DNA of 64,000 nt from an uncultured Acidobacteriota bacterium (GTDB lineage Bacteria; Acidobacteriota; Vicinamibacteria; Vicinamibacterales; 2-12-FULL-66-21). Made by a program: the position numbers and the translations under genes. This document shows, piece by piece, positions 950 through 63,711 of the stretch (positions are counted from its first letter, which is position 1; every line of letters starts with the position of its first letter). The stretch is from the NCBI GenBank assembly GCA_963750935.1, contig CAVVSR010000002.1, positions 14,029-78,028 on the forward strand, written 5' to 3'. Under the pieces are notes generated by a model, which was not told the DNA's origin, made no database searches, and saw nothing but the letters and a program-made list of their open reading frames with translations.

Positions 950-2369
950 ATGATTTCAGCCGAGAAGATCCCCAACAACGTCGGCCTCTCGAGCAACAAG
1001 CGGCTGCAGCGCGCGCTCGAGCACTGGCAGCCCGCCTATATCCAGTGGTGGCGCGAGATGGGCCCGCAGGGGTTCCAGGACTATCACCAGGTCTACGTGC
1101 GCACGGCGGTGAGCGTCGATCCGTCGGGGTGGGCGCATTTCGAATACGTCAAGCTGCCGGAATACCGGTGGGGCATCTTCCTCGCCGAGCCCGTGCACGA
1201 TCGCCGCATCGGCTTCGGCGATTTCTTCGGCCAGCCGGTGTGGCAGGAGGTGCCGGGCGAGTTCCGCAACCAGCTGCGGCGCCTGATCGTGACCCAGGGG
1301 GACACCGAGCCGGCCAGCGTCGAGCAGCAGCGCTGGCTCGGCCAGCGCTGCCCGAGCCTCTACGACCTGCGCAACCTGTTCCAGGTCAACGTCGAAGAGG
1401 GGCGCCACCTGTGGGCGATGGTCTACCTGCTGCACTCCTACTTCGGCCGCGACGGCCGCGACGAGGCGGAGGAGCTGCTGGCGCGCCAGAGCGGCAACCG
1501 CGACAAGCCGCGCATCCTCGACGCGTTCAACGAGCCGATCGACAACTGGCTCGACTTCTTCATGTTCACGATGTTCACCGACCGTGACGGCAAGTCGCAG
1601 CTGCTGTCGCTGTCGGAGAGCTCGCTCGACCCGCTGGCGCGCACCACGCGGTTCATGCTGACCGAGGAAGCCCATCACATGTTCGTCGGCGAGACCGGCG
1701 TCGCCCGCATCGTCGAACGGACCTGCCAGCTGCTCAAGACCGCCGGCTTCTCCGAGGACGTGCGGCGGCTGGGCGGGATCGACATCCCGACCGTGCAGAA
1801 GTTCATCAACCTGTGGTTCAGCCTGTCGCTGGACCTGCACGGCAACGAGATCTCGACCAACGCGGCGTCCTACTTCGCCAACGGACTCAAGGGGCGCGCC
1901 CAGGAAGAGAAGTGGGACGATCACCTCGTCACCGAGCGGTATCTACGATCTCGAGGTGGCGGCGGACGGCAAGCTCGATCGCCGCGCCATTCCGATGCGG
2001 ACCGCGATGAACGAGGTGCTGCGCGACTGGTACGTCGGCGACTGCCAGGCCGGTATCGAGCGCTGGAACAAGATCTTCGAGCGGCACGGCATGTCGGAGC
2101 GGCTGCGCCTGCCCGATCGCAAGTTCAACCGCGGCATCGGCATGTTCTCGTCGCTGCATTTCGATCCGGGCGGCGCGCCGCTGTCCGACAGCGAGTGGGA
2201 ACGCCGCAAGCACGAGTGGCTGCCGGCGCAGGCCGATCGCGACTATCTGCTCAGCATCATGGCCGAACCGGTCTACGAGCCGGGCAAGTTCGCCAACTAC
2301 ATCGCGCCGCCGCTGCGCGGCGTCAACCGGATGCCGATCGACTTCGAGTATGTGAGGACTGAAGCCTGA
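950..2369 (+). pseudogene. boxB: benzoyl-CoA 2,3-epoxidase (oxygenase) subunit B BoxB; frame broken near 1938-1941
   Basis: ORF 950..2362 matches the di-iron BoxB family (LFQVNVEEGRHLWAMVYLLH, RFMLTEEAHHMFVGE) up to WDDHLVTER. The conserved end (IYDLEVAADGKLDRRAIPMRTAMNEVLRDWYV...PIDFEYVR) continues in ORF 1956..2369, one frame over. Confidence 0.8.
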
Positions 2370-2375
2370 TCATGT

Positions 2376-2523
2376 CAACTCCCAACTCCCAACTCCCAAC
2401 TCCCAAAGGACATCACTCGCAAGGAGCAGGGCGGAAACTGTCACAACGGGCAAGATCGAACGGCTTTCACCCCGTGGCGTCGAGTGGCATGCCTTGGGAG
2501 TTGGGAGTTGGAGGTTGGGAGTG
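2376..2523 (+). repeat. inverted heptamer arrays (CAACTCC)x4 ... (TTGGGAG)x4 forming a long hairpin with an ~85-nt interior
   Basis: The left arm (2376-2409) reads CAACTCCCAACTCCCAACTCCCAACTCCCAAAGG. The right arm (2492-2523) reads CCTTGGGAGTTGGGAGTTGGAGGTTGGGAGTG. The reverse complement of the right arm aligns with the left arm except for a few mismatches or bulges. Confidence 0.85.
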
Positions 2524-2592
2524 TGACGTCCGTCCATCAACGCAGCCCTCCTCATCAACAACGAGTGGCGCCCTTCGTCGTCCGGCAAGACG

Positions 2593-3978
2593 ATGCCCGT
2601 GGTCAATCCGGCCACCGAGGAGGTGATCGCCGAGGTCGCGTCGGCTGAGAAGAGCGACGTCGATGCCGCCGTGGCGGCGGCACGTGCGGCGCTCGAGGGG
2701 CCGTGGGGCCGGATGTCGGCCCGTGAGCGCGGACGGCTGGTGCGCAAGCTCGGGGATCGCCTGATGGAGCGCGCCGACGAGGTCGCGCGGCTGGAGACGC
2801 TGCACAACGGCAAGCCGATCAGCGAGTCCCGCCACATCGAGATCCCGGCCGCCGCCGAGTGCTTCGAGTACTACGCCGGCTGGTCCGACAAGGTGATGGG
2901 GGAGACCATCCCGGTCAAGGGCAATCACCTCACCTACACGCTGCGCGAACCGGTGGGCGTGGTCGCCGCCATCGTGCCGTGGAATTTCCCGCTGCTGCTG
3001 GCGTCGTGGAAGGTGGCGCCGGCGCTGGCGTGCGGCAACACCGTGATCCTGAAGCCCGCGAGCCAGACGCCGCTGACCGCCCTGGCGCTCGGCGAGATCG
3101 CGGTCGAGGTCGGCCTGCCGCCTGGCGTGCTCAACGTGATCACCGGCGCCGGCTCGAAGGTCGGGCAGGCGCTCGTCGAGCATCCCGGCATCGACAAGAT
3201 CGCGTTCACCGGCGACACCAGCACCGGCAAGTCGATCATGCGGAGCGCGGCCGACACCCTCAAGCGGATCACGCTCGAGCTCGGCGGCAAGTCCCCCAAC
3301 ATCGTGCTCGCCGACGCCGACATCGACGCCGCGATTCGCGGCGCCACGATCGGCATCTTCTACGGCAAGGGCGAGGTGTGCGCGGCCGGATCGCGGCTGC
3401 TCGTCGATCGGTCGATCAAGGACGAGTTCATCGACAAGCTGTCGGCGCGGGCGAAGAAGATGGTGCCCGGGGATCCGCTGGATCCGAAGACGCGGTTCGG
3501 CGCAATCTCGTCGAAGAAGCAGCTCGACACGGTGCTCAAGTACGTCGAGAGCGGGACCCGCGAAGGCGCGACCCTGGTCGCCGGCGGGCAGCGGGCGGAC
3601 ATCGGCACCGGCAAGGGCTACTTCATGCAGCCGACGGTCTTCGCCGACGTCAAGCCGGAGATGACGATCTCGCGCGAGGAGATCTTCGGCCCGGTCCTCG
3701 CCGCGATCGACTTCGCCGATCTGGACGAGGCGATCGCGATCGCGAACGACAGCCCGTACGGACTGGCCGCCGGCGTCTGGACGCGCGACCTGAAGAAGGC
3801 GCACTACGCCGCGCGGAAGCTGCAGGCCGGCACGGTCTGGGTCAACACCTACAACGTCTACGACACCGCGGCGCCGTTCGGCGGCTACAAGCAGAGCGGC
3901 TTCGGCCGTGAGATGAGCGCGCACGCCCTCGAGCACTACACCCAGGTCAAGTCCGTGTGGATCGATCTGAACCTGTGA
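2593..3978 (+). CDS. NAD(P)-dependent aldehyde dehydrogenase (N-terminus probably extends to GTG 2523 across a 1-nt frame break near 2532)
   Basis: 461-aa ORF with ALDH hallmarks: WNFPLLLASWKVAPALACGNTV, ELGGKSP, GEVCAAGSRL, EEIFGPV. The upstream in-frame text SINAALLINNEWRPSSSGKT has no start codon. GTG 2523 with GGAGG at 2511-2515 would give MTS-SINAALLINNEW if one base is removed. Confidence 0.85.
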   Translation: MPVVNPATEEVIAEVASAEKSDVDAAVAAARAALEGPWGRMSARERGRLVRKLGDRLMERADEVARLETLHNGKPISESRHIEIPAAAECFEYYAGWSDKVMGETIPVKGNHLTYTLREPVGVVAAIVPWNFPLLLASWKVAPALACGNTVILKPASQTPLTALALGEIAVEVGLPPGVLNVITGAGSKVGQALVEHPGIDKIAFTGDTSTGKSIMRSAADTLKRITLELGGKSPNIVLADADIDAAIRGATIGIFYGKGEVCAAGSRLLVDRSIKDEFIDKLSARAKKMVPGDPLDPKTRFGAISSKKQLDTVLKYVESGTREGATLVAGGQRADIGTGKGYFMQPTVFADVKPEMTISREEIFGPVLAAIDFADLDEAIAIANDSPYGLAAGVWTRDLKKAHYAARKLQAGTVWVNTYNVYDTAAPFGGYKQSGFGREMSAHALEHYTQVKSVWIDLNL

Positions 3979-20515: not shown

Positions 20516-20542
20516 GGGACGTGCCGATTATAGGCACGTCCC
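20516..20542 (-). promoter_or_regulatory. perfect 10-bp-stem hairpin abutting the kinase start codon; on the minus strand its loop reads TATAAT (candidate -10 of a near-leaderless transcript)
   Basis: GGGACGTGCC-gattata-GGCACGTCCC. The minus-strand TATAAT (20532-20527) ends 11 nt before the ATG (20515). No SD-like sequence lies in between. Confidence 0.35.
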
Positions 20543-20630
20543 ACGTGCGACGTGCTACGTGCAACGTGCGCACGTGCTGACGTGCCACGGGCTACGTGCT
20601 ACGTCAGGACGTGCGGACGTGCTATGTGCG
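20543..20630. repeat. tandem heptamer array ACGTGCN, about 12 units
   Basis: Units read directly: acgtgcg acgtgct acgtgca acgtgcg (c) acgtgct (g) acgtgcc acgggct acgtgct acgtcag (g) acgtgcg (g) acgtgct atgtgcg. The array lies in the divergent kinase/STK intergenic region. Confidence 0.9.
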
Positions 20631-20655
20631 GGCGCGCGAGGTGCGAGCCGCGGCG

Positions 20656-26970: not shown

Positions 26971-27250
26971 CGGGAGTTATCGGAGGGTACGGAGAGACCG
27001 GATCTAATAACCGGAGCATCGGAGACAACGGAGGCTATCGGAGGTTCGATTCGCGGGCCGCGCTCCGCGCGGCTGCGGTGGGCCCGATCCCGATCTCACA
27101 AGCGGCGCAGTGATCCAAAGGCCGTTTGTGAGATCGGGGTCGGACCCACCGAAGTGCCGGCGATGCCGGCACCCGCGAAGCTGTCTTCTCCGTTGGTCTT
27201 CGTTGCCGCCGGTGCTCCGTTTGTAAGATCCGGTACCTCCGAGAACTCCG
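26971..27250. repeat. ~280-nt imperfect palindrome (MITE-like or structured-RNA-like) with periodic CGGAG / CTCCG motifs and nested hairpins
   Basis: The left arm 26971-27016 (GGGAGTTATCGGAGGGTACGG...CCGGATCTAATAACCGGAG) is the near reverse complement of 27215-27250. Seven CGGAG-like motifs (six CGGAG plus one CCGGA) sit at roughly 9-bp spacing (26981-27043). A central 25-bp stem spans 27078-27150, and a GTGCCGGC/GCCGGCAC hairpin lies at 27153-27171. Confidence 0.7.
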
Positions 27251-33396: not shown

Positions 33397-34274
33397 GCCT
33401 GTATCCCATTGCCGCCATCACCGACGAGTTCTCGCCGGCCGACCTCGACGCCTCGCTGAAGCGCATGGCGGAGGTCGGCATGACCGGCGCCGAGCTCCGC
33501 GTCGCCTTCGGCAAGAACATGATCGACCTCAGCGACGACGAGGTCGCGAAGGTGCGCGAGGCTGTCACGGCGCACGGCATGGAGGTCGTGTCGCTGGCCT
33601 CGCCGCTGCTGAAGTGCGTGCTGCCGGACTCGCCGCCGCTCGACAGCCGCGTCCAGCACGACGTGTTCGGCTCGGCCCACACCTACGAGGACCAGCCGCG
33701 CCTGACGCGCCGGGCCTTCGAGGTCGCGGAGCGCACCGGCGCGAAGATCATCCGCGTCTTCTCGTACTGGCGCACCGTCGAGCCGCAGAAGACCTACGAT
33801 CGGGTCGCGTCGGCGCTCGCCGCGCTCGGCGACGAGGCGGCGAGCCGCGGCATGACGATCGCCCTCGAGAACGAGCACGCGTGCAACGTCGCCACCGCGG
33901 CCGAGACGGCGACGCTCCTCGCGACCTTCCGCCATCCGGCCGTGAAGGTCCTGTGGGACCCCGCCAATGCCTCGATCCTCGGGGAGGTGCCGTTCCCGGA
34001 CGGGTACGCGAAGCTGCCGGTCGATCAGATCATCCACGTGCACGCGAAGGACTGTTTCGTGAAGGACTTCAAGCCGACGTGGGGACCGGTGGGGGAGATG
34101 GGCATCGACTGGCGCGGCCAGATCGACGCGCTGGTCCGCGACGGCTACAAGGGCTGGATCAGCCTCGAGACCCACTGGACCGGCCCGAACGGCGACAAGT
34201 TCGAGGCGAGCACGATCTGCGGGCGGAATCTCAAGGCGCTCGTGGACCGATCGGGACTGGGGACGCGGGACTAA
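33393..34274 (+). CDS. sugar phosphate isomerase/epimerase (xylose-isomerase-like TIM barrel)
   Basis: ATG 33393 overlaps the MFS stop (ATGA). The 293-aa product carries IIRVFSYW, IALENEH, HVHAKD, WISLETHW. Its last 7 codons are part of the GGGACNN array. Confidence 0.75.
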   Translation: MSLYPIAAITDEFSPADLDASLKRMAEVGMTGAELRVAFGKNMIDLSDDEVAKVREAVTAHGMEVVSLASPLLKCVLPDSPPLDSRVQHDVFGSAHTYEDQPRLTRRAFEVAERTGAKIIRVFSYWRTVEPQKTYDRVASALAALGDEAASRGMTIALENEHACNVATAAETATLLATFRHPAVKVLWDPANASILGEVPFPDGYAKLPVDQIIHVHAKDCFVKDFKPTWGPVGEMGIDWRGQIDALVRDGYKGWISLETHWTGPNGDKFEASTICGRNLKALVDRSGLGTRD

Positions 34275-34328
34275 GGGACTCGGGACTCGGGACTCGGGAC
34301 GCGGGACGCGGGACGCGGGACGGGGGAC
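34253..34328 (+). repeat. tandem heptamer array GGGACNN, 11 units (11 G3 tracts)
   Basis: GGGAC starts at 34253, 34260, 34267, 34275, 34282, 34289, 34296, 34303, 34310, 34317 and 34324. The array spans the stop codon (34272-34274) and ends 4 nt before ATG 34333. Confidence 0.9.
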
Positions 34329-34332
34329 TGGA

Positions 34333-36828: not shown

Positions 36829-36847
36829 CCAGGCCGCGCGCGAAGGC

Positions 36848-36867
36848 GGAGGAGTTGGGAGTTGAGG
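36848..36867. repeat. short GGAGTTG heptamer repeat (2 units)
   Basis: gcggagGAGTTGGGAGTTGagg lies between the cytochrome c stop and the quinoprotein start. It is the same unit family as the 2494-2521 array. Confidence 0.6.
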
Positions 36868-39333: not shown

Positions 39334-39375
39334 CGAAGTCAGAAGTCAGAAGGCAAAAGTCAGAAGTTAGAAGGC
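39334..39375. repeat. tandem heptamer array AGAAGTC-like, 6 units
   Basis: acgaagtc agaagtc agaaggc aaaagtc agaagtt agaaggc, immediately after the pcaF stop. Confidence 0.8.
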
Positions 39376-63623: not shown

Positions 63624-63698
63624 ACGGGAAGCGGGAAGCGGGAAGCGGGAAGCGGGAGCGGGAAGGGCGGGAAACGGGAGCGGGAAGCGGGAAGCGGG
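63624..63698 (+). repeat. tandem heptamer array GCGGGAA-like, about 11 units (12 G3 tracts)
   Basis: acgggaa gcgggaa gcgggaa gcgggaa gcggga gcgggaa gggc gggaaac ggga gcgggaa gcgggaa gcggg. It fills the gap between two convergent stops (63623 and 63712). Confidence 0.9.
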
Positions 63699-63711
63699 TA
63701 ACTGACGGCTT

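Follow-up and report, generated by a model that had tools for sequence, protein, structure and literature searches.

Inverted heptamer arrays form a predicted hairpin over the putative ribosome-binding site of an aldehyde dehydrogenase gene in Vicinamibacterales

Why should the start of a gene lie within one arm of a long inverted repeat, and does the repeat act on the messenger RNA or is it only a product of DNA replication? The question is raised by a locus in a 64,000-nt stretch of DNA (hereafter the window) from an uncultured Acidobacteriota bacterium of the order Vicinamibacterales (contig CAVVSR010000002.1, positions 14,029 to 78,028). The window has a GC content of 68.6% and contains the genes boxC, boxB and an aldehyde dehydrogenase (ALDH) gene in this order. 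They constitute a benzoate degradation operon, as indicated by matches to the profiles TIGR03222 and TIGR03225, the latter (BoxB) scored on an intact orthologue and not on the frameshifted copy of the window. The spacer between boxB and ALDH contains an array of CAACTCC heptamers and, downstream, an inverted array of TTGGGAG heptamers. Vicinamibacterales are among the most abundant soil bacteria, but they are almost uncultured and little is known of the control of their gene expression. For comparison, loci were collected from genomes (80) and metagenomes (80), together with 14 contigs found through individual proteins (labels L with a number). The nearest named loci are from metagenome-assembled genomes of Vicinamibacterales or Acidobacteriota.

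The hairpin and the start of the ALDH gene

The segment 2372-2528 is predicted to be a single long imperfect hairpin, occupying the whole spacer between boxB and ALDH. It is ~155 nt long with ~57 bp, and the repeat arrays constitute its outer stem. Tandem Repeats Finder (TRF) detected both arrays (Table 1). The arms pair over 29 nt, with 27 Watson-Crick pairs, one G-U and one C-A, and 87 nt lie between them; the inverted arrangement proposed in the initial annotation is confirmed. The palindrome continues inward, giving 42-nt arms with 83% complementarity. The RNA fold of 2360-2560 has -87.9 kcal/mol, far more stable than 200 dinucleotide shuffles (-65.4 +/- 4.6 kcal/mol; z -4.86), none of which was as good. 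When folded as DNA, the same stretch has -43.9 kcal/mol (z -4.52).

Orthologous hairpins are present between boxB and ALDH in at least 12 other Vicinamibacterales contigs, with copies in L081, L086, L171, L172, L173, L082-85, L110 and L174. The L171 copy is partial, with an insertion in the right arm, and only a left-arm-like array is seen in L004. All eight alignable sequences have four units plus CAA in the left arm and four units plus TTG in the right arm. The initial annotation suggested that the copy number of the repeat could tune the stem strength, and proposed to look for unit-number variation in relatives; no such variation is observed across these eight. The units themselves have diverged between subclades, with matching changes in the two arms: CAACTCC/GGGAGTTG, CAAATCC/GGGATTTG, CAAGCTC/GAGCTTG, and CAGGCTC/GAGCCTG. 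In the outer-stem alignment of the eight sequences (36 pairs), 92.7% of cells are standard pairs, and 11 of the 36 pairs have changed on both sides. The observed covariation score was reached by none of 500 shuffles, and the pairing falls to 25-51% if the partner is slid by 1-3 columns. The covariation extends beyond the arrays, to the nucleotides preceding the left array and the second codon of ALDH (ATGTCAA/TTGACAT and ACGTCAA/TTGACGT).

The inner part of the hairpin is also conserved. The RNAalifold consensus of five full-length orthologous elements has 57 pairs and -71 kcal/mol. Beneath a variable apex, it contains an inner helix free of repeats (GGGTGGAAG/CTTCCACCC type), and six inner pairs are changed on both sides. 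No conserved ligand pocket was seen in this consensus. The Rfam scan of 2200-2700 showed just two chance matches to small nucleolar RNAs, with E-values of 0.13 and 0.2. The variable apex and the lack of a known family in Rfam do not fit the ligand sensor considered in the initial annotation. Neither an intrinsic terminator nor a promoter was found by the scan of 2000-2900.

The sequence comparison shows that the hairpin copy has been inherited across the clade with co-evolving arms, and that its 3' arm encodes the putative ribosome-binding site of ALDH. The predicted Shine-Dalgarno (SD) sequence is the G-rich core of the penultimate unit, and the predicted start is TTG (GTG in the window), which continues the last unit. 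In hairpin-bearing orthologues, the arm reads ...TTGGGAG TTG ACN.... The variant unit TTGGAGG places GGAGG at the ideal SD distance from the start. L172 and L173 have the same right arm, TTGGAGG unit included; this unit is 7 nt 5' of the TTG start and is compensated by the CAACTTC unit of their left arm. All left-arm units of the window are alike, and the variant unit there leaves one C-A mismatch. The initial annotation had placed GGAGG, as the only SD-like one, at 2511-2515. It is found at the position given in Table 1, and GGGAG at 2496, 2503 and 2517 and AGGAG at 2422 are also present.

Table 1. Features of the boxB-ALDH spacer and its borders (window coordinates)
Feature	Position	Strand	Remarks
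boxB true stop TGA	2367..2369	+	2 nt 5' of hairpin foot; frame 1941-2369 encodes the conserved BoxB C-terminus ...NRMPIDFEYVRTEA
Non-repeat left-arm foot ATGT	2372..2375	+	predicted to pair with first ALDH codons; pairing in the minimum free energy fold begins at 2372
Left array (CAACTCC)x4.4	2376..2406	+	G-free; complementary to SD-bearing arm; TRF period 7, 100% matches
Inner part of hairpin	2407..2493	+	non-repetitive inner stem (GGGCGGAAA ... TTTCACCCC type) and variable apex
Right array, TRF period 7, 4.1 copies: TTGGGAG 2494, TTGGGAG 2501, TTGGAGG 2508, TTGGGAG 2515, then T	2494..2522	+	
GGAGG, putative SD, in penultimate unit	2510..2514	+	8 nt 5' of GTG 2523
GTG at ALDH start position of orthologues (TTG AC[N] there)	2523..2525	+	from alignments; G2523 is the extra base
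Stretch with +1 frame break, from GTG 2523 to conserved LLINNEW codons	2526..2550	+	
ALDH reading frame (PF00171)	2527..3978	+	

The initial annotation placed the boxB stop just before the left array. A stop does adjoin the array, but the TGA at 2360-2362 belongs to the frame preceding a frameshift near 1940. After this frameshift, the conserved C-terminus of BoxB (...DFEYVRTEA) is in the other frame, and the true stop is that in Table 1.

The start of ALDH was compared among its 120 closest homologues, which are 88-94% identical and for the most part 482-496 residues long. Each of them starts 7-13 codons 5' of the conserved LLINNEW. ATG 2593, whose use by homologues would have spoken against a start in the hairpin, was rejected as the start: all 120 begin 21-25 codons earlier. 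Because the matching Met is internal in every one of them, ATG 2593 is not the native start. GTG 2523 corresponds to the orthologous start position, since the TTG of the orthologues continues the last unit there. As to GTG 2523 being the start itself, the position is supported by the eight aligned sequences, but in the available sequence the codon lies in a different frame from ALDH. The window reads ...TTGGGAG TGTG ACG..., with one G more than the orthologues. GTG 2523 opens a 41-codon open reading frame (ORF), while TGA 2524-2526 closes the ALDH frame, leaving ATG 2593 as its first canonical start. The distance from GTG 2523 to the CTC CTC ATC AAC codons is 28 nt, a +1 frame break, which was concealed by the dash in the 'MTS-SINAALL' reading of the initial annotation.

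When the window is compared with intact orthologues or with the proteins of a related 345-kb contig, one frame change each is observed in boxC (~514), boxB (~1940, +1), ALDH (2526-2550), a pyrroloquinoline quinone (PQQ) dehydrogenase gene (~6750) and an MFS transporter gene (~32240). The five changes suggest an indel-prone (long-read?) assembly or gene decay. Because at least four neighbouring genes are likewise frameshifted, the ALDH break is probably an assembly indel. A programmed +1 frameshift at 2529-2535 was rejected, as the site lacks a slippery or stop-codon context and frameshifts also affect four nearby genes.

Gene callers are misled by these hairpins. They extended ALDH upstream through the right-arm repeats, and several database ALDH proteins have false N-terminal extensions translated from repeats, such as WELGIGSWEL. 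The false N-termini ...IWELGIGSWELT and VPWDLEPGAWDL are found in P0119, P0026 and P0062 (L086 from 1459, L082 from 2501). An 84-codon small ORF starting at ATG 2372 was rejected, since orthologues have ACG, AGT or ATT in place of this ATG, and the triplet co-varies with the other arm. Minus-strand ORFs at 2370-2837 and 2467-3936 were rejected as antisense shadows of a GC-rich gene.

Partition-function folding from 30 nt upstream of the boxB stop to 40 nt downstream of the ALDH start predicts that the start region is buried. In six of seven orthologues, both the start and the SD region (-13 to -6) are unpaired with a probability of 0.005 or less. The values are 0.40 and 0.004, respectively, in L086, which has a degenerate stem foot, and 0.38 and 0.13 in the window, which has the extra G and one mismatch. 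They rise to 0.77 and 0.44 in the hairpin-less L087. The burial of SD and start proposed in the initial annotation is consistent with this prediction. Folds of the window and orthologues in longer context reach -98.7 to -128.8 kcal/mol. A thermometer, another proposal of the initial annotation, is ruled out because folds of -99 to -129 kcal/mol are far too stable; an RNA thermometer would be a weak SD hairpin with mismatches, melting at about 30-42 C. The right arm carries three G3 tracts in the window, as had been noted, but their number is not conserved: four are present in L081, and two in the outer arm of the L082/L110/L174 clade. A G-quadruplex, which would require at least four G3 tracts with short loops, retained among relatives, was rejected for this reason.

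Variable spacers and a class of array-armed hairpins

The spacer between boxB and ALDH is a hot spot of variation. In 59 loci where boxB is next to ALDH, 11 to 379 nt separate the boxB stop from the INNEW codons, and the spacer contains direct arrays, different inverted arrays, or nothing. The L018 spacer contains ~27 GGTGCCA units, and three different arrays are seen within one 377-nt spacer of L118. In about half of the loci, an enoyl-CoA-hydratase-like gene separates boxB from ALDH. Its 3' remnant (..NLEKRKPEF..) is present in the spacers of L007, L010/L100 and L118, a sign that the gene was lost there; arrays adjoin the scar.

The ALDH clade holding all copies of the hairpin also contains another array hairpin (L102), a long non-array spacer (L124) and a 16-nt spacer (L087-90). 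The ALDH proteins of L082, which has the hairpin, and L087, which lacks it, are 99.8% identical, and the flanks of the two loci are ~96% identical. From the boxB stop to the LFINNEW codons, a stretch that holds the spacer and the first 6-10 codons of ALDH, the two loci are completely non-homologous (L082 2402-2555 and L087 1982-2045). The hairpin is dispensable, because L087 retains a nearly identical ALDH without it. From these alignments, the spacer and the first ALDH codons look like a replaceable cassette. Such hairpins are markers of hot spots at which near-identical strains exchange the spacer together with the initial codons of a gene.

The hairpin belongs to a larger class. In 692 kb of related loci, where tandem arrays with at least three copies were counted, period 7 is the commonest (96 of ~200 arrays). 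An ungapped search in 1.08 Mb of related DNA revealed 135 long inverted repeats. Nearly half of them, 62, are array-armed hairpins between a stop and the next start, of which 58 are unique after de-duplication. The periodicity of their arms is 7 in 32 cases, 8 in 15, 9 in 14 and 10 in one. The units are diverse, including CACGAAG/CACGATG, CCAGCTN/CCAGTTN, GGTGAAT, CGGATTG, GGGTTCT, GCCGGGA and others. No reading frame with high GC at third codon positions covers 55 of the 58 unique hairpins; the remaining three are within the 5' extension of a frame that runs from stop to stop. Where the flanking genes are co-directional, the median distance is 7 nt from the upstream stop to the left arm and 13.5 nt from the right arm to the first in-frame start. 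Both distances are 12 nt or less in 12 of 40 co-directional hairpins. A T-rich tail, like the U tract behind the short G+C-rich stem of an intrinsic terminator, follows one of 42. These data show that intergenic palindromes with inverted tandem arrays as arms, built of 7-9-nt units whose sequence is site-specific, are common in Vicinamibacterales.

Mismatches within the arms were counted on the sense strand of hairpins with known orientation. G-U exceeds A-C by 63 to 35 (binomial p = 0.006), although not every hairpin is an independent case. With each hairpin taken as one observation, G-U predominates in 26 and A-C in 13, and the two are equal in 10 (p = 0.053). The excess leans towards selection on the transcript.

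Literature searches for such a hairpin class in Acidobacteriota found no description. Hairpins in intergenic regions within operons are known as REP/BIME and, in Neisseria, as Correia (NEMIS) elements; they stabilise the upstream mRNA or are cut by RNase III, shifting the ratios of cistrons. These are multi-copy families with conserved sequences, mobilised by dedicated transposases. In contrast, the present class has no family-wide consensus and its arms are internally periodic.

Three heptamer systems are closer. The nearest precedent with an experimental test is the 5'-untranslated region (UTR) of hmw1A of Haemophilus influenzae, where an (ATCTTTC)n left arm is paired to a G-rich arm and expression goes up when RNase III cleaves the hairpin (PMC12721329). 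As in the boxB-ALDH spacer, a long stable hairpin lies 5' of a gene, with a heptamer array as one arm and a G-rich sequence as the other. The hmw1A hairpin controls the downstream gene post-transcriptionally, a control that would apply here by analogy. Only its left arm is repetitive, the copy number varies (phase variation), and the UTR is monocistronic. In the boxB-ALDH hairpin, both arms are arrays, four units are fixed, the position is intercistronic, and the repeat is predicted to encode the SD and the start codon. Xanthomonas has intergenic GGGAATC arrays, often as convergent (inverted) pairs, ~70 pairs per genome, with unknown function (PMC4692102). They share with the present arrays the intergenic location of heptamers (G3N4-type in Xanthomonas) on opposite strands, able to form stem-loops. 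In both cases, the position is conserved between relatives while sequence and length drift. Essentially one unit is used throughout the Xanthomonas genome, in contrast to the many unrelated units among the 58 unique hairpins of Vicinamibacterales (CAACTCC, CACGATG, CCAGCTN, GGTGAAT and others), which also show 8- and 9-nt periods and compensatory evolution of the arms. TAACTGA direct repeats of Beggiatoaceae and heptamer arrays of cyanobacteria are concentrated in intergenic regions and often end 1-2 nt from a start codon (PMC4679880). These are direct repeats of one conserved unit, with one inverted case reported and no long hairpin (PMC4679880). The present hairpins differ from the known heptamer systems in their locus-specific units, their compensatory arms and their intercistronic position from stop to start, and the boxB-ALDH family differs also in that the repeat supplies a putative SD and start codon.

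Function or by-product

The reading we favour, for which the chances appear about even, is that the hairpin is an accessory intercistronic element that would occlude the ALDH start and need cleavage, by an RNase III-like enzyme, or unwinding. In the polycistronic boxCB-ALDH mRNA, the hairpin would form, hide the SD and start of ALDH, and block the binding of the 30S subunit. Since the hairpin is predicted to hide both signals, the expression of ALDH would depend on the stem being cut or unwound. The likeliest agent would be a double-strand-specific RNase of the RNase III type, by analogy with the hmw1A 5'-UTR. A near-perfect duplex of 30 bp is a suitable substrate for RNase III. Whether cleaved or intact, the hairpin would leave or cap the boxB message with a structured, stabilised 3' end. 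It may be an accessory, replaceable module setting the relative expression of the neighbouring cistrons, rather than a switch operated by temperature or a ligand. Among the proposals of the initial annotation, an intercistronic processing or stability element still fits best. An ALDH-specific regulatory role does not fit, because the hairpin is absent beside a 99.8% identical ALDH and the same architecture is seen with other units in many other spacers.

Several points weigh against this reading. On the evidence of the contigs that lack the hairpin, any function it has is dispensable. If the frame break that follows GTG 2523 is real, this start would be non-functional in the window. Cleavage by RNase III would be an extrapolation to this organism from another. 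The covariation of the arms and the G-U excess could arise at the DNA level, by palindrome correction through template switching or by a transcription-associated C-to-T bias, and the per-hairpin G-U test is borderline.

The main rival, possible but less probable, is that the hairpin is a neutral or selfish by-product at the DNA level. Slippage arrays in spacers would be inverted by strand-switch duplication, and the arms would be kept alike by template switching (quasipalindrome correction). The RNA hairpin would merely be tolerated, and its overlap with the ALDH start would be an accident of array growth. An excess of heptamers is a slippage signature known in prokaryotes, as far as Mrazek (2007) is summarised in PMC4679880 and PMC4692102. 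The units differ between loci, and one and the same site has direct arrays alone in some genomes but inverted ones in others; the GATTG family is found as direct arrays in L012 and L105 but inverted in L031. L011 has two hairpins of the same unit family at two loci, with unrelated loops. The DNA hairpin is significant, too. The unit diversity, the L011 pair and the presence or absence between near-identical strains argue for a mutational origin at the DNA level. On the other side, four units in all eight sequences are unexpected for free-running slippage, given 4-10% protein divergence. This fixed number, the conserved non-repetitive inner helix, the placement of the GGAGG variant exactly at SD distance, and its compensation on the other arm argue for constraint, and the G-U excess on the sense strand also stands against a pure by-product. 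Both may be right: the hairpins may have originated by slippage and strand switching and then been retained if the RNA hairpin was useful or harmless.

A broader version of the occluding-hairpin reading, which we put forward only tentatively, is that self-complementary arrays of 7-9-nt units, extending from a stop to the next start, are operon punctuation throughout the order. Their arms would be selected on the mRNA and could encode the SD and start of the next gene, serving as processing or insulation modules that set gene ratios; a dedicated generator of such arrays may exist. If they act on mRNA, the hairpins would represent an extensive level of operon control in Vicinamibacterales that has escaped annotation, and a natural case of a simple repeat making a ribosome-binding site together with its own antisense partner.

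Translational coupling is unlikely. It supposes that the 150 nt are looped out so that the boxB stop comes beside the ALDH start, and that the ribosome terminating on boxB melts the foot and re-initiates. The geometry would permit this, with the stop 2-12 nt before the stem foot and the start within the last base pairs in all eight aligned sequences, and with the 12 of 40 co-directional hairpins close to both stop and start. Constrained folds do not agree. With the footprint of the terminating ribosome forced single-stranded to stop+9, the SD is unpaired with a probability of only 0.00-0.13 and the start of at most 0.30; a footprint to stop+15 frees the start alone, and only in some orthologues. 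Simple unmasking by termination was rejected because the SD is not freed.

It is still less likely that the hairpin is a mobile miniature element, similar to a miniature inverted-repeat transposable element (MITE), REP/BIME or Correia, inserted 5' of ALDH. In L010 (6415-6450) and L100, another gene has a full GTCAACTCC-CAACTCC array behind its stop, and GGAGTTGGGAGTTGAGG, a two-unit remnant of the CAACTCC heptamer, lies in another intergenic region of the window (36845-36866). The cassette-like replacement of the spacer and the N-terminal codons would also suit insertion. However, no target-site duplication was seen, including at the boundary between L082 and L087, and the hairpins share no conserved terminal motif. 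Transposed copies were rejected on the two L011 hairpins, whose loops are unrelated despite the shared unit, and dozens of unit sequences would require dozens of element families.

A signal-operated switch, whether RNA thermometer, riboswitch or G-quadruplex, that gates ALDH translation is very improbable: the sequestered SD and start and the three or four G3 tracts of the window and L081 would suit it, but folds of -88 to -129 kcal/mol would not melt at physiological temperature, no Rfam match or conserved pocket accompanies the variable apex, the tracts are down to two in one clade, and the element is dispensable.

Other arrays and palindromes

Hairpins after stop codons seem to be the rule in the boxC-boxB-ALDH operon. 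A plain 13-bp palindrome (GGTGCTCAGTGCC / GGCACCGAGCACC) at 903-949 of the window is preceded by the boxC stop at a distance of 4 nt and followed by the boxB ATG after ~16 nt. In L081, 2 nt separate the end of a second array hairpin from the confirmed boxB start (MISAEKIP).

Elsewhere in the window, three direct heptamer arrays, at 34252-34329 (GGGACNC), 39335-39375 (GAAGTCA) and 63625-63702 (CGGGAAG), begin at or a few nt from stop codons, and none has a nearby inverted partner. The first reaches 4 nt before the next ATG (34334). About 14 degenerate ACGTGCN heptamers are found at 20536-20646, between two divergent genes: a minus-strand gene of 1006 codons and one that is Ser/Thr-kinase-like. 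This array is partly self-complementary, with arms at 20564-20589 and 20595-20620. An intergenic inverted repeat at 27073-27154 has 34-nt arms and a 14-nt loop with no internal periodicity. Among the related loci, 17 GATTGAC units and 27 complement units constitute a 370-nt palindrome at 2736-3103 of L032.

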